Shown here in pieces: positions 3,281 to 49,826 of a stretch of DNA of 64,000 bases (the first letter of the stretch is position 1; each line of letters starts with the position of its first letter). This stretch comes from an uncultured Candidatus Saccharibacteria bacterium. Lineage in GTDB: Bacteria; Patescibacteriota; Minisyncoccia; Phycocordibacterales; UBA2100. The stretch covers positions 1,800-65,799 of the forward strand of contig CAZZHR010000002.1 of NCBI GenBank assembly GCA_964654205.1, written 5' to 3'. Both the position numbers and the translations under genes were made by a program. The notes under the pieces were generated by a model that was not told the origin of the DNA, did not search any database, and saw only the letters and a list, made by a program, of their open reading frames with translations.

Positions 3281-4483
3281 ATGCGCATCCTCGGCATTGA
3301 AACATCGTGCGACGAAACGGCCGTGTGTCTAATTGAAGCTCAGGGAACCGGTGCGGACTTTTCTTATACAGTTCTCGGCAACGCGCTCTTGTCGCAAGCT
3401 GCGCTTCACGCTCAGTATGGCGGCGTCTTTCCGAATCTGGCGAAGCGCGAGCACGCGAAGAACCTCGTGCCACTGCTCGAGGAAACACTGCGGCAAGCGG
3501 GAGTACTCAACATCACATCGAAGCCTACCGACGTATCGGAAATTTTGCCCCTCAAAGACCTCCTCTCTCGCGAAGAAGAGCTCTTCAAGACACTTAGCGC
3601 CCACGTACTGCGCTATGAGAAAACGGATATCGATGCAATCGCCGTGACAGCGGGCCCCGGCCTCGAGCCGGCGCTCTGGGTGGGCATCAATTTCGCGAAG
3701 GCGCTCTCACAGCTTTGGGGCGCCCCACTAGTCGCGGTAAACCACATGGAAGGCCACGTCATCATGCCCATGATGGAACACCCGCACATACCCAAGTATA
3801 TGCGGGTGTCTGGTGGTATGCGGGAATTCAATTGGCCGGTGTTGAGTCTCCTGATTTCCGGTGGGCATACAGAACTCGTGCTATCAGAATCATTCGGACA
3901 GTACAAAAGAATCGGCGAGACGCGCGACGACGCAGCCGGTGAAGCATTCGACAAAGTCGCGCGGCTTATGGACCTTCCCTACCCGGGCGGACCGCAAATC
4001 AGTCGCCTTGCCGCAGACGCGCGAACGAAAGGTATTGAGTCTGATTTCACATTCACTCGCCCGATGCTCAAAGAAGATAATTATGACTTTTCGTTCTCCG
4101 GGCTCAAGAATGCTGTGCGACTCCAGGTCGAGAAAATGCAGCCTCTCGATGAAGAAAAGAAAATGGCGATTGCCCGCGAGTTCGAGGACTGCGTTGCAGA
4201 GACGCTTATCGAGAAAACCATGCGCGCTGCCGACGAATACGGCGCAAAGACGCTTGTAGTGGGCGGCGGCGTCTCGGCGAACACCCGCATCCGCGAGCTC
4301 CTCGCCGAGCGCGTCGCTCGTGATGGTATCGTCGAAAAGGTACTCGCGCCTGCGGCCGAACTCGCGACCGACAACGCGCTCATGATTGCGCTTGCCGGAT
4401 ATTTCCACGCCGAACGCGGCGAATTTGCACCGCCCGATACACTCGTCGCGGGCGGTAACCTGAGGCTAGAAACAGCGCTCTAA
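3281..4483 (+). CDS. tsaD: tRNA N6-adenosine threonylcarbamoyltransferase TsaD (Kae1/Gcp family), with internal insertion
   Basis: MRILGIETSCDETAVCL..., HMEGH metal-binding motif, SGGV..N and C-terminal GGGVSAN. 400 aa against about 340, with extra residues around HPHIPKYMRVSGGMREF. Confidence 0.85.
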   Translation: MRILGIETSCDETAVCLIEAQGTGADFSYTVLGNALLSQAALHAQYGGVFPNLAKREHAKNLVPLLEETLRQAGVLNITSKPTDVSEILPLKDLLSREEELFKTLSAHVLRYEKTDIDAIAVTAGPGLEPALWVGINFAKALSQLWGAPLVAVNHMEGHVIMPMMEHPHIPKYMRVSGGMREFNWPVLSLLISGGHTELVLSESFGQYKRIGETRDDAAGEAFDKVARLMDLPYPGGPQISRLAADARTKGIESDFTFTRPMLKEDNYDFSFSGLKNAVRLQVEKMQPLDEEKKMAIAREFEDCVAETLIEKTMRAADEYGAKTLVVGGGVSANTRIRELLAERVARDGIVEKVLAPAAELATDNALMIALAGYFHAERGEFAPPDTLVAGGNLRLETAL

Positions 4484-4503: not shown

Positions 4504-6723
4504 ATGGAGCCATCGCCTGCCCAGCCAGGGAAAGCCCCTGAGCCATTTCTAAAGCCATACGACCCGACTGCCTCGGAACCAGTGGTCAACGAACTCTGGG
4601 AGAAAAGCGGGTACGCAAATCCGGATGTCTGCATCGAAAAGGGTGTCACAAAGCCGGATGCCGATCCCTACACCATCGTCCTCCCTCCGCCGAACGTAAC
4701 TGGTACGCTCCACATGGGTCACGCGGCGATGCTCGCCATCGAGGACATCCTTATCCGCTACCACCGCATGCGCGGATACAAGACCCTGTGGATTCCCGGC
4801 ACCGACAGCGCCGCCATCGCGACGCAGGCAAAAGTAGAAGACGAGCTCTACAAGAAAGAGAAGAAGACGCGGCATGACTTGGGGCGCGATGAGCTCATGA
4901 AGCGCATCGATGCGTTTACCGACGAGAGCAAGAACATCATCATCAATCAGCTCAAGAGAATGGGTAGTTCACTCGATTGGAGCCGCTACGCATACACAAT
5001 GGACGAGCCAAGGTACAAGGCGGTGATGGAAGCATTTGTGCGCATGTACGACGCGGGGCTGATATATCGCGGCAACAGAATCGTGAACTGGGACCCGAAG
5101 CTCCAGACCACCGTGAGCGACGATGAGATTGAGTACGTCGAGAAAACCGACCCCTTCTACTATTTCCAGTACGGCCCCTTCGTTATAGGCACTGTGCGTC
5201 CCGAGACGAAATTTGGCGACAAGTACGTCGTGATGCACCCGGGCGATGAGCGGTACAAAGAGTACTCGCACGGCCAGACTATTGAGCTCGAGTGGATCAA
5301 CGGACCAATTACCGCCACTGTGATTAAAGACGAGGCCGTCGACCCCGAGGCCGGCTCCGGCGTCATGACGATAACCCCCGCGCACTCCAGCATCGACTTC
5401 GAGATTGCGCAGCGGCACAAGCTCGACATCGAGCCAGTAATCGATGAGCGCGGCATCTTGCTCCCTATCGCGGGCGAATTCGCGGGGCAGCACATCAAAA
5501 AAGCGCGCGCGCTGATTGTAGAGAAGCTGCAAAAGAAAGGCCTTGTTGTGAAAGTGGACGAAAAGTACGTCCACAATGTCGCGACCAACAGCCGCGGTGG
5601 TGGGACGATAGAGCCACAGATAAAAAAGCAGTGGTTTATCGCTGTAGCAAAGCCAGCGAAATTTCCCGATGGCAAGACCCGGACGCTCAAAGAGTGGATG
5701 CGCGAGGCGGTAGAAAGCGGCCAGACGAAAATTACGCCCGAACGCTACGAGCGCATCTACTATCACTGGATAGACAACCTCCGCGACTGGAACATTTCGC
5801 GCCAGATTTGGTTTGGCCACCGCATTCCCGCATGGTTTCGTGGCGATGAGGTTAAAGTGCAACTTGACCCGCCGGTTGGCGGACCGGGTGCAGAATGGCA
5901 GCAGGATCCCGACGTACTCGACACGTGGTTCTCATCAGGGCTCTGGACCTTTTCCACGCTCGGTTGGCCGGATGACAATGCAGACCTCAAGACATTCCAT
6001 CCAACATCGGTACTCGAAACTGGCTACGACATCCTCTTCTTCTGGGTCGCGCGCATGGTGCTCATGTCCGGATTCTTGCGGGGTGAAGTCCCCTTCCGCC
6101 AGGTCTACCTGCACGGGCTTGTGCGCGACGGACAGGGACGGAAAATGTCGAAGAGCCTCGGCAACATCATCGACCCGCTCGACATGATAAAGAAGTACGG
6201 CGCCGACGCGACGCGCCTCTCACTTATCGCTGGCTCTGCCCCCGGCACCGACCTCAAGCTTTCCGAAGACAAGGTCCGCGGGTACAAGAATTTCGCAAAC
6301 AAATTGTGGAACATCACGCGCTTTGTGTTGGAGAATCAGGACACTCAAGGTCCGACCTTGGGAATTCAAAAAGGTCGGACCTTGCACCCGGGGGACGAGC
6401 GAATTATAAACTTCGCGATCGGCGCGGCGATGCAAGCCGCGGCGGATATCGATAACTTCAGATTAGATATCGCTCTTGACCGTCTGTACCATGTCGTTTG
6501 GGACGAGTTTGCCGCAAAGACCCTTGAAGAGAGCAAGCCGATACTCAAGGGCGACGACAAGGCCGCGGCCGCGTCTCGAAGCGCTGCGCTCTACGAAGCA
6601 CTCGTCATTTACCTCAAAGCTCTTCACCCCTTCATGCCCTTCGTCACCGAAGCCATTTGGCAGCAATTGCCCAAGAAGGAATCCGACCTCCTCATGGTCG
6701 CAAAGTGGCCCCTGCTTCGCTAA
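4504..6723 (+). CDS. valS: Valine--tRNA ligase (compact, 739 aa)
   Basis: PPPNVTGTLHMGHA (HIGH motif, ValRS-type context) and KMSKSLGN; editing-domain-like middle region; lacks the long C-terminal coiled coil. Confidence 0.8.
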   Translation: MEPSPAQPGKAPEPFLKPYDPTASEPVVNELWEKSGYANPDVCIEKGVTKPDADPYTIVLPPPNVTGTLHMGHAAMLAIEDILIRYHRMRGYKTLWIPGTDSAAIATQAKVEDELYKKEKKTRHDLGRDELMKRIDAFTDESKNIIINQLKRMGSSLDWSRYAYTMDEPRYKAVMEAFVRMYDAGLIYRGNRIVNWDPKLQTTVSDDEIEYVEKTDPFYYFQYGPFVIGTVRPETKFGDKYVVMHPGDERYKEYSHGQTIELEWINGPITATVIKDEAVDPEAGSGVMTITPAHSSIDFEIAQRHKLDIEPVIDERGILLPIAGEFAGQHIKKARALIVEKLQKKGLVVKVDEKYVHNVATNSRGGGTIEPQIKKQWFIAVAKPAKFPDGKTRTLKEWMREAVESGQTKITPERYERIYYHWIDNLRDWNISRQIWFGHRIPAWFRGDEVKVQLDPPVGGPGAEWQQDPDVLDTWFSSGLWTFSTLGWPDDNADLKTFHPTSVLETGYDILFFWVARMVLMSGFLRGEVPFRQVYLHGLVRDGQGRKMSKSLGNIIDPLDMIKKYGADATRLSLIAGSAPGTDLKLSEDKVRGYKNFANKLWNITRFVLENQDTQGPTLGIQKGRTLHPGDERIINFAIGAAMQAAADIDNFRLDIALDRLYHVVWDEFAAKTLEESKPILKGDDKAAAASRSAALYEALVIYLKALHPFMPFVTEAIWQQLPKKESDLLMVAKWPLLR

Positions 6724-24580: not shown

Positions 24581-24626
24581 CAAAAATAAAAAGCAAGCGA
24601 GCAATACCTACCTAGGTATTGCTCGC
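24581..24626 (-). terminator. Intrinsic terminator after the 24657-24926 gene
   Basis: GCGAGCAATACCtacctaGGTATTGCTCGC, a 12-bp stem, followed by TTTTTATTTTTG on the minus strand. Confidence 0.8.
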
Positions 24627-24656
24627 TGTTTGTACTGCTGCCGCATTTTTACCTCC

Positions 24657-26327: not shown

Positions 26328-26400
26328 ATCTATCGTGCTATTCAGAGTAATGAAAACATTGTACGATTGCTGACATCGGGCGTCAACCTCACCTATCAGA

Positions 26401-26436
26401 CTCCTGCAAATTCACCAATTGGTGGATTTACAGGAG
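26401..26436. promoter_or_regulatory. 36-nt near-palindromic element, copy 1
   Basis: 31/36 identical to 54654-54689; core TTCACCAATTGGTGGA flanked by ctcctg/caggag arms; lies between rpsP and khpA. Confidence 0.7.
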
Positions 26437-26473
26437 TGAATCGTTTCCGAGGCTCGAGGTCGTTCTCGATGAA

Positions 26474-36119: not shown

Positions 36120-37871
36120 ATGCACCGATATATGGCCGAACTTGAGCATATCCGGCACACGCTCGCGCACCTCCTCGCACAGGCCATACTCGAGAGCTAC
36201 CCCAAGGCAAAACTCACGCTCGGCCCCGCCGTCGACAACGGTTTCTACTACGATGTCGACTTCGGTGAGGACAAAGTCCCGGAGGAAAGCCTCAAGACAT
36301 TTCAAAAGACGATGAAAAAGCGCCTCTCATCGTGGAAAGAGTTCACGCATGAGGAAGTCTCCAGGGAAAAAGCCCTCGAAATCTTTGCCGGCAACGAGTA
36401 CAAGGCCGAGCTCATCGAGGAAATCGCCGAGCGCGGCGAGACAATCACGCTCTACACCTGCGGCGGATTTACCGACCTGTGCCGCGGCGGTCACGCAGAG
36501 AATCCCGCACAAGACATCGACCCCGACAGCTTCAAACTCGACCGCATCGCGGGCGCATACTGGCGGGGCGATGAAAAAAATAAGATGCTCACCCGCATCT
36601 ACGGCCTCGCATTTGCGAGCAAGGAGGAACTGGATGCCTACCTCGTCCAGCGCGAAGAGGCCAAGAAGCGCGACCACAGGAAGATTGCACGCGAGCAGGA
36701 TCTGCTTGTCTTTTCCGACCTCGTCGGAAGTGGCATGCCCATGTATACGCCTAAGGGCAACATCGCGCGCAATGCCATCGTCAATTACTCGCGCGAACTC
36801 AATGCAAAGCTGGGCTTTGGCGAAGTACACACACCCAACATCAACAAAGCGGAGCTCTTCAAACTCTCAGGCCACTACGACGCATACAAGGAAGACATGC
36901 TCTCTGTCCGTTCGCAGTACGTGAGTGATGAAATGTTTCTCAAGCCGATGAACTGCCCGCAGCACACGCAGATCTTTGAATCGCAGCCGCGCAGTTACCG
37001 CGACCTCCCTATCCGATATGCCGACTTCGCGAATCTGTACCGCGACGAGAGGCCGGGCGAACTTTCAGGCCTCACGAGACTTCGCGCGTTTGCTCAGGAC
37101 GATGGGCACATCTTTTGCCGCGAAGACCAGATTGAGCAAGAGGTCTCTGCAGTTCTCGGCGCGATTCAAGAAGCACTCGCGACATACAAGATTGGATACT
37201 GGATGCGGCTCTCGCTGAGCGACCCGCAGAACCCGGCCAAGTATCTCGGTGATCCTGCGGTATGGCAGCGCGCCGAAGCAATCATGCGCGACCTTCTTAC
37301 CAAAAAAGGCATCGAGCACAAAGAAGCAGTCGGCGAGGCAGCTTTCTACGGCCCGAAAATCGACATCATGGCCGTCGACGCGATAGGACGAGAGTGGCAG
37401 ATTTCGACCGTACAGCTCGACTTTGTCCAACCATCACGCTTCCAGCTCGAGTACACGGCAGAAGACGGCGGCAAACAAACGCCAGTCATGATACATCGCG
37501 CTCTCATCGGTTCGCCCGATAGATTCCTCGGCATTCTCATCGAGCACTATGCGGGCGCGTTCCCCCTCTGGATGGCACCGGTGCAGCTCAGCATCCTTCC
37601 TGTCTCTGAAACGCACTCGGAGTATGGGCGCAGCGTCGCGCAGCAGCTTAAAGATGCGGGGCTCCGCGTGGAACTCGACGAGACAGATAGTCTCGGCAAG
37701 CGCATCCGCACCATGAAGATGCAGAAAGTGCCGCTCTACATCGTCGTCGGCGACCAGGAGGTCGACGCAAAGACCGTGACGGTGGAAGACCGTGCGGGAG
37801 AAAAGCGCACGCTCGCACTCCCTGCACTTATCGACGAACTCAAGCAAAAAATCTCCTCCCGCTCCCTCTAG
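36120..37871 (+). CDS. thrS: Threonine--tRNA ligase (short form lacking TGS N-terminus)
   Basis: Class II core and anticodon-binding domain; editing-domain HxxxH context; collinear with ThrS from the second N-terminal domain onward. Confidence 0.85.
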   Translation: MHRYMAELEHIRHTLAHLLAQAILESYPKAKLTLGPAVDNGFYYDVDFGEDKVPEESLKTFQKTMKKRLSSWKEFTHEEVSREKALEIFAGNEYKAELIEEIAERGETITLYTCGGFTDLCRGGHAENPAQDIDPDSFKLDRIAGAYWRGDEKNKMLTRIYGLAFASKEELDAYLVQREEAKKRDHRKIAREQDLLVFSDLVGSGMPMYTPKGNIARNAIVNYSRELNAKLGFGEVHTPNINKAELFKLSGHYDAYKEDMLSVRSQYVSDEMFLKPMNCPQHTQIFESQPRSYRDLPIRYADFANLYRDERPGELSGLTRLRAFAQDDGHIFCREDQIEQEVSAVLGAIQEALATYKIGYWMRLSLSDPQNPAKYLGDPAVWQRAEAIMRDLLTKKGIEHKEAVGEAAFYGPKIDIMAVDAIGREWQISTVQLDFVQPSRFQLEYTAEDGGKQTPVMIHRALIGSPDRFLGILIEHYAGAFPLWMAPVQLSILPVSETHSEYGRSVAQQLKDAGLRVELDETDSLGKRIRTMKMQKVPLYIVVGDQEVDAKTVTVEDRAGEKRTLALPALIDELKQKISSRSL

Positions 37872-37946
37872 CAACATCGACACGCCCCAGACTGGTCTCA
37901 AACACATTTCGAGCACGTTTCAAACTACTGTCTCTGTGGTCTGTAC

Positions 37947-37992
37947 GCACATACACCAACCCCCCACGACCGTTTGGAGTTGGTGTATGTGC
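37947..37992 (-). promoter_or_regulatory. Element A: ATACACCAA-N6-ACGGTCGT-N6-TTGGTGTAT, 11 nt past the stop of PaaX-like gene 1
   Basis: Same element and orientation as 38567-38612. Confidence 0.7.
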
Positions 37993-38002
37993 AGATCGAG
38001 CC

Positions 38003-38572
38003 CTAAGCCAAACCGAAGTCGCGCTTGAGAGAAGCTTCCCCCTCAAGCTCTTGCACGACCATGTATCGCATCTTGTAGCCGATACGCCACTCAGATTTCA
38101 AAAGTGCGACTAAGTCTTCACAATTGTACGGAAACACCCAGACGCTGTCCTGAAGTCGCACGAAACCAAGGTGCCTGAGCATTTCCCGGATGCGATCGCG
38201 CAGTCGACGGTTCTTCTCTGGAATGTCAAAAATAAGCACTCGCCACTTCCCGTCCCATTTTTTCTGATTCCGTGCCTGAAGGTCTGCCACACTTTGCAAC
38301 CTCTCGAGCTCGCGCGCACCGAGCGCTGTCAGGCGCAAGCCCGCTGCCTCCCGCCGAGCATACCCCTTTTCGACGAGTCGCCGGTATGTGCGCCTCATAC
38401 TCTCGCCCTGTCGCGGACCAGGGACTAGTCCGAGTCGCTTCAGACCTTGCACTGCATTTGGAGCCGCAATAGCAATCGCGAGCAGTCCGCCTAATTTGAG
38501 CGTCTCGAGTGCGACCTGTTGAATTTTCTCTTTTCTCGAACGCGATGCACCTCTCTCCTCCAATCGCCCCAT
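38003..38572 (-). CDS. PaaX-family-like transcriptional regulator, paralog 1 (190 aa)
   Basis: GLRLTALGARELERLQ...WDGKWRVLIFDIPEKNRRLRDRIREMLRHLGFVRLQDSVWVFPY parallels PaaX (GLRLTRRAESK..WDGKW) and has a Cas2/VapD-like core. Start set at MGRLEERG by alignment to paralog 2. Confidence 0.55.
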   Translation of the reverse strand: MGRLEERGASRSRKEKIQQVALETLKLGGLLAIAIAAPNAVQGLKRLGLVPGPRQGESMRRTYRRLVEKGYARREAAGLRLTALGARELERLQSVADLQARNQKKWDGKWRVLIFDIPEKNRRLRDRIREMLRHLGFVRLQDSVWVFPYNCEDLVALLKSEWRIGYKMRYMVVQELEGEASLKRDFGLA

Positions 38573-38612
38573 ACACCAAGTATATACGACCGTGGGGTAT
38601 TGGTGTATTGGG
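38567..38612 (-). promoter_or_regulatory. Element B: the same 37-bp inverted-repeat element, overlapping the start codon and -10 region of PaaX-like gene 1
   Basis: cccCATacaccaagtatatacgaccgtggggtattggtgtat; TATACT box 6 nt before the ATG suggests a leaderless transcript. Confidence 0.65.
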
Positions 38613-38746
38613 TAAGATGGAAATGCGGGGGTGTCTGCGACCGTCAGCTCAGCGGTCGATTGCGACAACGCGAAAGCCCCGGCGTATGCCGGGGCTTTGC
38701 GTTCACTTGTTTCCCTCTTTCGAGAGCTTGGAGCGGGCGGCGGCGT

Positions 38747-40069
38747 TTAGGCGCGCGAGATGACGAGACGCGGCGTGCCGTAGGCATCGCGAGTCACCTT
38801 CATCGCATCGCGGGTCATCGAATCGCTAGTCGGAAGCTCGAAGTGATTAGCCTTGACCTCCTGGGTCGTGGCTACCTCTTCTGTCTGCTCCTCTGCTCGA
38901 CTGCGCGAAATCATCGAAGTCGCGAGCGCGAGAGCGCCACCCTTGTAGTAGACGAGGAGGTAGCTACCCGCTATCGCGAGAGCGATGAGGCCAGCCCAGT
39001 ACGCGATGTTCGCGATAGGACCGAGTGTCAGACCCGTGTACGGAATCTGCGTGAGCGAGACGTACGGAGAGACTGGCGCCGCCGGAGCAACGTAGCTCTG
39101 CGTGTGACACGTGTACGTGCCGCCAGGACCGGAGACCGTGAGCGAGTAGACCGTGTTGCCGTAGGCGTAGAGCGAAGTAGAACCATTCGGAGCGACCTGA
39201 CCGACCGACGGCGTGATGTACGCGCTGGTGACAAGTCCCTGCGAACTCCACGTGAGCGTAATCATGCCTGTCGTGTAGTAGCCCTGGCCAATCGTGATGA
39301 CACAGTACGGAGCCTGGGCCTGCGGATAGACAGGGTAGCTCGGGTACACAGGGTAGCTCGGAGCGACATACTGCACTATCGGCTGCGGGTTCGCCTGCGT
39401 GACGGTCGTCACGTTGGTGTTCACGTTGGTGTTCGTGTTCACGTTGCAGCTGTTGTTGACGCAGTTGTTATTCGTCACTGGAGGCTGCGGCGCAGGCGGG
39501 ATGTATACCGGCGGCTGCGGCCTCGGAGGCTGCTGCGGCGGGTAGCTCGGGTACGAGGGGAAGCTCGGGAAGGAAGGCGTCGAGAACTTCGGAGGCACAA
39601 TGCTCATCGGGCTCGAGAACGGCTTGAAGCTGTAGCTTTCGTACTGTCCACACGAATAGCAGTCGTCGAGCGGGTAGGACCAATCATTACCCATGTCGTA
39701 GGACCAGTCACAGGTATAACAGTCGTCGAGCGGGTAGGACCAGTCACTGCCGATGTCGTACGACCAGTCGTTACCCATGTCGTACGACCAGTCGCTACCC
39801 ATGTCGTACGACCAGTCGCTACCCATGTCGTACGACCAGTCGCTACCCATGTCGTACGACCAGTCGCTTCCCATGTCGTAGGACCAATCATTACCCATGT
39901 CGTACGACCAGTCGCTGCCCATGTCGTAGGACCAATCGCTGCCCATGTCGTAGGACCAGTCTTCCCCATCGGCGTGTGCAATCGTGGCAAATGCGCCGAA
40001 AGAAAGCGCTGCCGCAATCGCGACCACTGTGAGACCAAAGAGCAGGTTTCTTATTGATGCATTTGTCAT
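38747..40069 (-). CDS. Secreted or surface protein with about 12 tandem DWSYDMGS octapeptide repeats, a Pro/Tyr-rich linker, an IPYTG motif followed by a TM segment, and a cytoplasmic tail
   Basis: Signal peptide; 24-bp in-frame tandem repeats; PSYPVYP repeats; IPYTG then LTLGPIANIAYWAGLIALAIAGSYLLVYYK. Confidence 0.7.
   Translation of the reverse strand: MTNASIRNLLFGLTVVAIAAALSFGAFATIAHADGEDWSYDMGSDWSYDMGSDWSYDMGNDWSYDMGSDWSYDMGSDWSYDMGSDWSYDMGSDWSYDMGNDWSYDIGSDWSYPLDDCYTCDWSYDMGNDWSYPLDDCYSCGQYESYSFKPFSSPMSIVPPKFSTPSFPSFPSYPSYPPQQPPRPQPPVYIPPAPQPPVTNNNCVNNSCNVNTNTNVNTNVTTVTQANPQPIVQYVAPSYPVYPSYPVYPQAQAPYCVITIGQGYYTTGMITLTWSSQGLVTSAYITPSVGQVAPNGSTSLYAYGNTVYSLTVSGPGGTYTCHTQSYVAPAAPVSPYVSLTQIPYTGLTLGPIANIAYWAGLIALAIAGSYLLVYYKGGALALATSMISRSRAEEQTEEVATTQEVKANHFELPTSDSMTRDAMKVTRDAYGTPRLVISRA
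39626..39961 (-). repeat. 24-bp in-frame tandem repeats encoding DWSYDMGS
   Basis: Period 24 nt, about 12 units with wobble variation; no spacers. Confidence 0.85.
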
Positions 40070-49031: not shown

Positions 49032-49130
49032 GGGTCAGCGCGGATGAAATCAAAAGGGCGGCCGAATGGCTACCCTTTTGATTGCACACCTTGCCACAAT
49101 ATGCGCGCTTTGTGTCGGTGCTATCTGTGC

Positions 49131-49159
49131 GTTATAGCGAACGTATAGCATTTACATCA
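49131..49159 (-). promoter_or_regulatory. Element C, downstream copy: TATAGCGAA-N3-ATAGCAT, overlapping the stop of PaaX-like gene 2
   Basis: gttatagcgaacgtatagcatttaca; same orientation as 49736-49764. Confidence 0.65.
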
Positions 49160-49729
49160 TTTCCCTTTCAGACCGAAATGTTTGCGTAAATCCTCATCAC
49201 CCTCTATCTCGTCAACAATCATATAGCGGACTGCCCTTCCGATGTGTAGATCAGCCTTCACGAGTGAAACAAAATCTTCAACATCGTAGGGGAAAACCCA
49301 TACGCTATCCTGCAACATAAGAAAGCCGATGTGTCGGAGAGTCCTACGGATCTTATCCCTATCTGCTTTCCGATGTTCGGGGATATCAAAGATGAGCACA
49401 CGCCACCTGCCGTCCCAACGACGCGGCACGTCCCCTCGCATCAATGCCTCATGTAGATCCAGCTCTTTCCGGCCTCGGTCAGTCAATCGAAGCCCTTTCT
49501 CCGTGCTACGAATGTGTCCAGAGGCGATTAATCGCTTTCGCGCTCGATTAATCGTTGAGGAATCTTGCGGAGACCTCTCAAGGAGTCCCAATTTGTACAA
49601 ACTTTGGACCGCATTCGGTGCTGCCAAAACAAATCCTGTGATTGCAGCCACTTTGACCGCCGCGAGTAATGCGAACTTGATATCTCTTTTCCGCTTACGG
49701 ATCCTCCCTCGTATTTCTACCTCGCCCAT
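49157..49729 (-). CDS. PaaX-family-like transcriptional regulator, paralog 2 (190 aa)
   Basis: APNAVQ..GLRLTDRGRKELDLHE..RWDGRWRVLIFDIPEHRKADRDKIRRTLRHIGFLMLQDSVWVFPY; collinear with 38003-38572. Confidence 0.55.
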   Translation of the reverse strand: MGEVEIRGRIRKRKRDIKFALLAAVKVAAITGFVLAAPNAVQSLYKLGLLERSPQDSSTINRARKRLIASGHIRSTEKGLRLTDRGRKELDLHEALMRGDVPRRWDGRWRVLIFDIPEHRKADRDKIRRTLRHIGFLMLQDSVWVFPYDVEDFVSLVKADLHIGRAVRYMIVDEIEGDEDLRKHFGLKGK

Positions 49730-49735
49730 ACTATT

Positions 49736-49764
49736 TATTCGCTATAGCGAAATGATAGCATGAC
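49736..49764 (-). promoter_or_regulatory. Element C, upstream copy with a perfect 14-bp palindrome ttcgctatagcgaa, 8 nt upstream of the paralog 2 start
   Basis: tattcgctatagcgaaatgatagcatgac. Confidence 0.65.
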
Positions 49765-49826
49765 AGTCTGAAACATACGTCTAACGTATTGTCTACGTAT
49801 GTCGACGGAGCAAAACAGGGCGCACG

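Follow-up and report, generated by a model that had tools for sequence, protein, structure and literature searches.

What is gained when a bacterial regulator gene carries the palindrome of its promoter region a second time, just past its stop codon? The question is raised by two genes for short PaaX-like proteins in a 64,000-nucleotide stretch of contig CAZZHR010000002.1 (the whole of which is referred to here as the window), as each of these genes is bracketed by two copies of a palindromic element of its own. The same arrangement was found at 62 of 65 homologous loci, where both copies change together while the gene keeps its place, and where bases of the palindrome arms covary with residues of the encoded protein. 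The explanation that we favour, and which we hold on balance to be the probable one, is a conserved self-repression through two operators, in which dimers of these proteins, here termed mini-PaaX, would act via a cognate operator at the promoter and another one past the stop codon. The features on which the argument draws are as follows.

38003-38572, minus strand: paralogue 1 (W1), a 189-aa mini-PaaX protein consisting of a predicted winged helix-turn-helix (wHTH) and then a Cas2-like PaaX_M domain, without PaaX_C
38571-38608, minus strand: upstream copy of element 1 at W1, ATACACCAA-TACCCC-ACGGTCGT-ATATAC-TTGGTGTAT
38579-38584, minus strand: -10-like hexamer TATACT of W1, at -12 to -7 relative to the ATG, in the right spacer of the putative operator
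37951-37988, minus strand: downstream copy of element 1 at W1, which begins 15 nt beyond the stop codon and has its 3'-most gene-strand base at 37951
49157-49729, minus strand: paralogue 2 (W2), a 190-aa mini-PaaX protein encoded directly downstream of gyrB and convergent with the gene of a CARDB-domain protein
49728-49761, minus strand: upstream copy of element 2 at W2, ATGCTAT-CATTT-CGCTATAGCG-AATAA-ATAGTAT, ending in the 'AT' of the ATG
49118-49151, minus strand: downstream copy of element 2 at W2, ATGCTAT-ACGTT-CGCTATAACG-CACAG-ATAGCAC, ending 6 nt after the stop codon
49045-49086, no strand assigned: GC-rich hairpin with flanking A and T runs, found as an inverted repeat and by RNA folding, between W2 and the convergent CARDB gene

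A first-pass annotation of the window, made from its letters alone, had reported that element 1 flanks paralogue 1 at both ends, and this holds: the plus-strand pattern ATACACCAA-N6-ACGACCGT-N6-TTGGTGTAT has exactly two matches in the 64 kb, at 37951-37988 and 38571-38608, against an expectation of 0.00 in shuffled sequence even when three mismatches are permitted. The element is 38 bp long and, according to a repeat finder, its two copies start 620 bp apart. The upstream copy ends within the W1 start codon (ATG, 38572-38570 on the minus strand) and its dyad centre, 38589|38590, precedes the A of that codon by 17 nt. The downstream copy is identical to it in arms and core, has GGGGGG in place of the -10 spacer, and forms together with its flanks a palindrome with 14-bp arms (37947-37992); it is situated between the convergent genes for W1 and a ThrRS-type protein (36120-37871), and as RNA it would give a sense-strand hairpin of at least 18 bp with G.U pairs in the spacer.

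For element 2 the two flanking copies were likewise found as reported, although the part that had been described, TATAGCGAA-N3-ATAGCAT (49133-49151 and 49743-49761; shuffle expectation 0.00), proved to be half of a 34-bp dyad that occupies 49728-49761 upstream and 49118-49151 downstream of the gene, with starts 610 bp apart, and which reads ATGCTAT-N5-CGCTATAGCG-N5-ATAGTAT on the gene strand. The upstream dyad is centred at 49744|49745, 15 nt ahead of the ATG, which is an atypical register, and the sole -10-like hexamer is ATAAAT at -9 to -4. The downstream dyad is centred at 49134|49135 and agrees with the upstream copy at 25 of 34 positions. Both pairs were found again by an independent repeat finder, and neither element has a third copy in the 64 kb. 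The earlier description of the copies as direct repeats in the same orientation carries no meaning, because the elements are palindromes and only the central AC/GT of element 1 gives an orientation: a repeat search scored direct alignment at 74-77% and inverted alignment at 76%, and among homologous loci with an asymmetric centre the two copies share an orientation in nine cases and are opposed in nine.

Three further sequences adjoin these elements. The gyrB-W2 intergenic region contains, just upstream of the W2 operator at 49773-49802, the inverted pair ACATACGT-N14-ACGTATGT with an internal ACGTAT, the arms of which resemble the ATACGT arms at the sites of other family members, and which could be a candidate site for another paralogue. 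A pair of 15-nt sequences that are 80% complementary links the 3' end of the W2 open reading frame (ORF; 49166-49180) with the sequence just upstream of the W2 operator (49759-49773), and may be due to chance. Between the W1 operator and an upstream minus-strand ORF (38747-40069, no Pfam hit) there is a GC-rich hairpin at 38671-38701, CGAAAGCCCCGGC-GTAT-GCCGGGGCTTTGCG, which is probably the terminator of that ORF and would make W1 a transcription unit of its own.

Cognate palindromes at homologous loci

Eighty genomic loci were fetched from Paceibacteria genomes and yielded 65 usable genes, or 67 when the two window genes are included. In the bracket test an upstream copy was accepted anywhere within 150 bp and a downstream copy within 400 bp of the gene, with the 95th percentile of cross-locus comparisons as control. 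The upstream palindrome of a gene recurs after its own stop codon (0-200 bp) at a level exceeding this control in 62 of the 65 loci, and the flanking boxes that the first-pass annotation suggested might be sought in relatives are therefore present in them. Anchored 40-mers from the upstream region have a median of 30/40 matches in the gene's own downstream region as against 20/40 in the downstream regions of other loci. A generic scan of 393 kb centred on family genes, window included, returned 38 upstream sites, 33 downstream sites and three others, and third copies of a gene's own element are essentially absent within 2.5 kb on either side of family genes and throughout the window. A chance origin of the brackets was ruled out by the shuffle expectation of 0.00 together with cross-locus controls that fall far below the observed matches.

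The upstream copy has the same architecture in nearly all genes, namely an arm of 7-9 bp, a spacer of six, a core palindrome of 8-10 bp (among them GCTATAGC, GCGGTCGC, ACGGTCGT and CCTATAGG), a TATAAT-like hexamer and a second arm that runs into the ATG. Most of the 43 loci in which the dyad centre was analysed have it exactly 17 nt upstream of the A of the start codon. A TANNNT hexamer with its first base at -12 was seen in 46 of 67 loci, and just 5 of 67 have a 4-mer that resembles a Shine-Dalgarno sequence. Given the usual distance from a -10 box to the start of transcription, the transcript would begin at or beside the ATG, and from this position of the -10 box, coupled with the missing Shine-Dalgarno sequence, we infer that the messenger RNAs of the family are leaderless. 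The downstream copies retain arms and core but usually not the -10 box: a gene-side -10-like hexamer accompanies 43 of 55 upstream but 8 of 58 downstream copies. Symmetry is higher downstream (14.5 of 18 pairs on average, compared to 13.3 of 18 upstream). Their centres lie 10-148 nt past the stop codon (43 loci), and the centre-to-centre spacing of the two copies ranges from 588 to 770 bp with a median of 627. The next gene on the downstream side faces the family gene convergently in 34 loci and runs in its direction in 30; this distribution, and the lack of a conserved -10 box downstream, rule out that the downstream copy generally serves as promoter or operator of the next gene.

A few loci depart from the common plan. 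Three copies, or a tandem downstream pair, were observed at L035 (centres 1448, 2397 and 3071), L037 (907 and 999) and L166 (5412 and 5513), and the upstream copy of L035 precedes the ATG by 46 nt instead of the usual 17 nt. At L204 the upstream and downstream palindromes of the family gene (3296-3334 and 3918-3956) have different arms, ACGCTAT and ACACATA, respectively, which suggests that the gene of one paralogue can bear the site of another, allowing cross-regulation.

Clustering of neighbouring genes revealed several orthologous groups of family genes that hold fixed genomic positions. W1 and its counterparts at L007, L008, L021 and L041 each face a convergent ThrRS-type gene, while other orthologous groups adjoin genes for SecA, TopA, FtsH, IF2/RbfA, methionine aminopeptidase/PurD, ATP synthase subunit a or Obg. 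Whether the bracketed units occupy different places in related strains had been proposed as a check by the first-pass annotation, and within these groups they do not. Members of the ThrRS group have different core palindromes in different genomes (ACGGTCGT, CACCACCG, CTCGGTCG, CGCTATAGCG), but in any one genome the downstream copy matches the upstream one, and it follows that both sites and the protein evolve together in place.

The symmetry profile of the sites falls into three blocks. Values reach 0.91-0.98 at the three positions nearest to the centre (1-3) and 0.8-0.98 in the arms, with a drop in the spacers, while the central pair itself is symmetric just half of the time. The outer bases of the arms (ATAC...GTAT) are family-wide and the inner arm and core are specific to each locus. 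Symmetry so close to the centre, 0.93 at position 1, fits the contact of duplex DNA with a protein of two-fold symmetry and does not fit a hairpin, in which these bases would form the loop. Mutual information between columns of the protein alignment and arm bases, computed over 56 loci, is strongest between arm positions 13-16 and W1 residues 57, 58, 60, 61, 63, 74 and 78. In an AlphaFold2 model residues 57-63 fall within a helix at 53-69, the predicted recognition helix, and residues 74 and 78 within a beta-hairpin at 72-81, the predicted wing. The associations can be stated residue by residue: C accompanies Glu57 in 35 of 39 cases, and T accompanies Asp, Asn, Ser, Gly or Pro at this position in 15 of 15; Trp74 is paired with T (11/11) and Arg74 with C (14/14); and for Arg61 the base is C in 33 of 38 cases.

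The mini-PaaX proteins

W1 and W2 are 47% identical to each other and match Pfam PaaX_M (PF20803) with E values of 1.2e-21 and 8.2e-22, respectively (77 bits as compared to a cut-off of 24 bits), in agreement with their initial designation as PaaX-like paralogues. PaaX_M is the only domain that exceeds its Pfam cut-off in the two proteins, both of which end after it; PaaX_C has no Pfam hit in either, and the PaaX equivalog model TIGR02277 gives them 38-43 bits against a cut-off of 264.55. No Pfam wHTH family matched W1 or W2 at E <= 0.1. The AlphaFold2 model, which has a mean predicted local distance difference test score (pLDDT) of 72 and values below 50 at residues 27-50, shows the N-terminus as helix-helix-helix-beta-beta, and Foldseek aligned 170-185 columns of the model to Rv0674 and PaaX and its N-terminal part to MarR proteins. 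The closest solved structures by fold are those of Rv0674 (3kfw), of Cas2 proteins, which cover the C-terminal half, and of E. coli PaaX (8a39).

The likeness to Cas2 is a borderline one at the level of sequence. Pfam CRISPR_Cas2 scores 23.2 bits with a cut-off of 23.8, and the NCBIfam cas2 equivalog TIGR01573 (cut-off 24.5) scores 29.2 bits for W1 and 23.7 for W2. Foldseek matches to Cas2 structures span approximately 75 residues, and the Cas2-like domain retains the aspartate that ends beta-1, within FDIPE, but instead of standing alone it follows a putative DNA-binding half of about 100 aa at the N-terminus. One homologue, P0024, carries the NCBI name 'CRISPR-associated endonuclease Cas2'; there is no cas context, and such naming of mini-PaaX proteins is probably a systematic misannotation.

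The N-terminus MGxLE is common to 33 homologues, and its conservation fixes the start codons of W1 and W2. The family, with a typical length of about 188 aa, has at least 1533 members, nearly all of the named ones from Patescibacteria (Kaiserbacteria, Taylorbacteria, Paceibacterota and relatives), and these are currently annotated as just 'PaaX', as 'Cas2' or as hypothetical. The neighbours of W1 and W2 in the window encode ThrRS, DnaE, GyrB (gyrB), the CARDB protein and a sortase, with no paa association.

Proposed self-repression and its alternatives

According to the explanation that we favour, each mini-PaaX dimer would bind its own tripartite palindrome of 34-38 bp (arm-N5/6-core-N5/6-arm) on double-stranded DNA. 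The promoter-proximal copy spans approximately -36 to +2 and has the -10 box in one spacer, and protein bound there would occlude RNA polymerase, resulting in negative autoregulation. The copy past the stop codon, some 620 bp away and often the more perfect of the two, would most likely be an auxiliary operator of high affinity, which would probably retain repressor near the gene and assist binding at the promoter, either through a DNA loop that encloses the gene or through a higher local concentration, and which may also stop transcription leaving or entering the gene. The promoter site is compromised because one of its spacers must be the -10 box and one of its arms must end in AT(G), and the post-stop site, being free of this constraint, is the better palindrome. 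What the sequences show is the anatomy of the brackets, their conservation, the joint evolution of both sites in place and the covariation of protein and DNA. Binding, repression and a leaderless start are read from these patterns, and the most conjectural part of the proposal is that the distal site would act through looping or as a roadblock. Of the three possibilities raised by the first-pass annotation, namely autoregulatory operators with a second site for looping, recombination sites that define mobile cassettes, and RNA hairpins recognised by the Cas2/VapD-like core of the protein, it is the autoregulatory operators that are best supported, through the fixed register, the contrast in -10 boxes and the covariation; the looping component draws no help from helical phasing.

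The same-class palindrome is also met away from family genes. Metagenome contigs were scanned for one common class, ATACAC-N9-GCTATAGC-N9-GTGTAT, family genes being called by the hidden Markov model of the family, and 127 sites were obtained in 120 loci. A family gene lies within 500 bp of 24 of these sites, 59 have none and at least 800 bp of sequence on both sides, and 44 are too near a contig end, such that the gene-less share is 59 of 83 assessable sites (loci L085-L204; for example L088:1799-1840, L148:11810-11848 and L091:6651-6689). The gene-less sites are intergenic in 51 of 59 cases, beside unrelated housekeeping genes, and typically follow a stop codon by 20-130 bp; every arrangement of neighbours occurs, with 13 sites between convergent and 8 between divergent genes, a difference that is not significant. 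Approximately half of them are perfect 38-bp palindromes, spacers included, and half have a -10-like hexamer. The neighbours are diverse housekeeping genes among which no recurrent family was found. A cognate partner is nearby for about 2-3 of the 59, as compared to near-universal pairing at the regulator genes. Clustering of all sites at 33 or more identical positions out of 38 gave no assignment of gene-less sites to paralogues, as 20 of the 38 positions were already set by the search pattern. The first-pass annotation had named the occurrence of its elements at unrelated loci as evidence against its claim, and such palindromes are indeed common without a family gene, but the downstream copies that it also considered are kept at homologous loci in the numbers given above. 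The gene-less sites fit a regulon and do not fit elements exclusive to brackets; we read them as further genomic sites of mini-PaaX proteins, and their scatter among housekeeping genes suggests that these proteins do more than regulate themselves.

Two cognate pairs in the metagenome set bracket other units, L125:4139-4177 with 6506-6544 (centres 4158 and 6525) and L153:4562-4600 with 5507-5545 (4581 and 5526), one of these units being a divergent pair that includes a uracil-DNA-glycosylase-like gene and the other a 165-aa gene of unknown function.

Several observations weigh against self-repression from two operators, or against parts of it. The spacing of the operators shows no helical phasing at 10-11.3 bp (Rayleigh p > 0.15), a test that is only weakly informative at about 620 bp, and looping would need at least a dimer of dimers, which is putative here. 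Spacer symmetry of the downstream and gene-less sites (0.5-0.8) far exceeds what three contact blocks need, and this excess hints at a role as hairpin or cruciform or at quasi-palindrome correction. The downstream copy of W1 is the sole hairpin between W1 and the ThrRS gene and folds better on the sense strand. W2 deviates from the common register, its dyad being 2 bp nearer to the ATG, and the geometry of its promoter is uncertain since the centre lies at 15 nt and the best hexamer, ATAAAT, is too close to the ATG. Sites of the class are not exclusive to brackets, and those between convergent genes have no promoter to regulate. The covariation with the predicted recognition helix and wing, finally, backs a cognate reading of duplex DNA, but having been computed without correction for phylogeny it is supportive rather than proof.

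Some of these observations would be accommodated if the downstream and gene-less copies were chiefly boundary elements, acting at 3' ends as roadblocks or insulators bound by a mini-PaaX paralogue or as long hairpins that arrest RNA polymerase, with autoregulation at the upstream copy being only one use of a genome-wide system. We rate this as unlikely, though, as the main rival, deserving of serious weight. The position of gene-less sites after stop codons and between genes speaks for it, as do the lean towards convergent over divergent neighbours, the cognate pairs around other transcription units at L125 and L153, the strong hairpin between the convergent W1 and ThrRS genes and the presence of a different 36-bp palindrome, also between convergent genes, at 1362-1397 of the window. 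However, the downstream copies are not followed by a T-run, the lean towards convergent neighbours falls short of significance, and the -10-like hexamer in half of the gene-less sites would suit promoters. W2 possesses, besides its downstream copy, the hairpin at 49045-49086 that looks like a conventional bidirectional terminator, which makes the downstream palindrome dispensable in that capacity, and a pure hairpin terminator need match neither the operator of the gene nor the recognition residues of its protein. A secondary role of the downstream copy as hairpin or terminator is conceivable alongside self-repression. If recognition of that hairpin occurred in the 3' untranslated region of the mRNA, perhaps through the Cas2/VapD-like core, mini-PaaX could control the stability or processing of its own message. 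This is very unlikely in our estimation, and RNA hairpins were the least supported of the three possibilities first proposed. The aspartate of FDIPE is kept, the W1 downstream copy is very stable on the sense strand with its G.U pairs, and G.T mismatches outnumber A.C mismatches in downstream copies (45 vs 30); yet this bias falls short of significance, a hairpin loop would have no use for symmetry at position 1, and the upstream copy has the same specificity although it would be outside a leaderless transcript. Moreover, the covariation involves helix and wing of the predicted wHTH and not the Cas2-like domain, the equivalent of which dimerises in PaaX (PMC9493321), and no Rfam family matched in the region of the elements.

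It has also to be considered whether the palindromes are the recombination or transposition ends of a cassette, or dispersed units resembling repetitive extragenic palindromes (REPs) with a dedicated, flanked protein gene in the manner of REP-associated tyrosine transposases (RAYTs). Perfect palindromes are common, cognate palindromes lie on both sides of the gene in the manner of REP/RAYT units, and identical palindromes of 38-42 bp occur in unrelated contexts: the gene-less site of L088 matches, fully or almost fully, the downstream site of the family gene at L204, from the same sample and with the same coverage, and that of L148 likewise matches the downstream site at L166, from the same metagenome, with flanks that are not homologous in either case. 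Against mobility stand the fixed positions of orthologues beside ThrRS, SecA, TopA, FtsH, IF2/RbfA and other housekeeping genes, the evolution of sites in place, and the two copies per element in 64 kb. No recombinase was found among the neighbours of family genes in the window and homologous loci, nor an HUH or Y1 motif, and 2.9 million viral contigs contained no family member and no palindrome of the ATACAC-N9-GCTATAGC-N9-GTGTAT class. The orientation of the centre is random, whereas excision would need direct repeats, and paralogues that are only about 47% identical do not bespeak a recent spread. We accordingly regard mobile cassettes as highly improbable, and the suggestion of the first-pass annotation in this direction is not supported. 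A broader proposal, which we advance tentatively and rate as unlikely, is that 38-bp palindromes specific to individual paralogues form a genome-wide system in Paceibacteria, in which every kind is recognised by one mini-PaaX protein and marks the ends of transcription units, as a protein-bound insulator or terminator or as a domain-forming loop anchor, or else that there is a partnership of the REP/RAYT kind. In the former case the regulator genes would simply be those units whose own product marks both ends every time; in the latter a wHTH/Cas2-like protein would maintain its own family of dispersed palindromes.

Other long palindromes are present in the window. The one at 1362-1397 is a near-perfect 36-bp palindrome, CTTGTTTATAAGTCGCCATGGCGAGTTATAAACAAG, and sites with the same class of arms (TTGTTTAT...ATAAACAA, with a CG-N6-CG core) are found at L013:5389-5422 and L200:11215-11248; it represents a second conserved class of palindrome. 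Two more, AGCGAGCAATACCTACCTAGGTATTGCTCGCT at 24596-24627 and ACTCCTGCAAATTCACCAATTGGTGGATTTACAGGAGT at 26400-26437, resemble neither element 1 nor element 2.

Relation to known systems

The Patescibacteria (candidate phyla radiation) are uncultured bacteria with very few recognisable regulators, and to our knowledge almost nothing is known about transcription control in them. For a family of at least 1533 proteins the present analysis supplies a concrete cis-element, a promoter model and the start of a code that relates residues to bases, and such a code could let the sites of each paralogue be predicted from sequence alone. An operator at the promoter combined with a better one past the stop codon is uncommon as the layout of a bacterial autorepressor, and here it is conserved between genomes that have diverged widely. 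A search of the full-text literature returned nothing on the mini-PaaX family, on its operators or on palindromes of this kind in Patescibacteria.

The closest characterised relative is PaaX, which in E. coli recognises TGATTC-N27-GAATCA and keeps RNA polymerase away from its own promoter, thereby repressing it (PMC9493321). The logic proposed for mini-PaaX is the same and the geometry similar. The phenylacetyl-CoA-responsive PaaX proteins of E. coli and Pseudomonas (8a39), together with the Jannaschia protein (3l09) and M. tuberculosis Rv0674 (3kfw), share with mini-PaaX the winged helix, which is predicted in the latter, and the Cas2-like middle domain, a widely spaced inverted-repeat operator and apparent self-repression by occlusion of RNA polymerase, which is a prediction in the present case. 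Mini-PaaX differs in its length of 189-190 aa, in being devoid of the ligand-binding PaaX_C and in its low score on TIGR02277; its genes are among housekeeping rather than paa genes, its operator has an additional central core palindrome, the gene would be leaderless and has a second cognate operator past its stop codon, and several paralogue specificities are found per genome. CRISPR Cas2, on the other hand, occurs as a separate protein of about 90-110 aa whose gene adjoins cas1 and a CRISPR array, whereas mini-PaaX is a fusion that flanks housekeeping genes (the window as a whole was not scanned for arrays).

Repressors that act through DNA loops include lambda CI, with OL and OR flanking cI-rex, LacI with O1, O2 and O3, GalR and DeoR, and in lambda the loop tightens autoregulation. 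Common to these and to mini-PaaX are two cognate operators hundreds of bp apart, one of which is on the promoter, and in lambda the repressor gene is likewise between the operator clusters. In the case of mini-PaaX, however, helical phasing is lacking, the distal site is the more perfect one where classical auxiliary operators are usually weaker, and a loop would enclose the repressor gene only.

Vertically inherited genes flanked by their cognate palindromes are also known from the 'REPtrons' formed by REPs and RAYTs, in which the palindromes are clade-specific and scattered over intergenic regions, often after genes. The mini-PaaX gene is similarly flanked by its own palindrome, with others scattered between genes, but its product is a putative wHTH/Cas2-like DNA binder and not an HUH/Y1 nuclease, each element appears to have a few copies instead of hundreds, and the upstream copy is held in a fixed promoter register. 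Terminator-binding factors that also bind next to a promoter are represented by TTF-I and Reb1 of the Pol I system and by mitochondrial mTERF1; as with mini-PaaX, one sequence-specific protein has sites at both ends of a unit, though the proteins and polymerases involved are unrelated, and termination by mini-PaaX is hypothetical. A PaaX-like repressor, an operator over the promoter and an auxiliary operator are thus each of a known kind. What appears to be new is their combination, in which a truncated PaaX lineage with multiple paralogues is joined to a predicted leaderless promoter set within a 38-bp tripartite palindrome, to a conserved second cognate operator past the stop codon and to other sites of the same class that are scattered among housekeeping genes.

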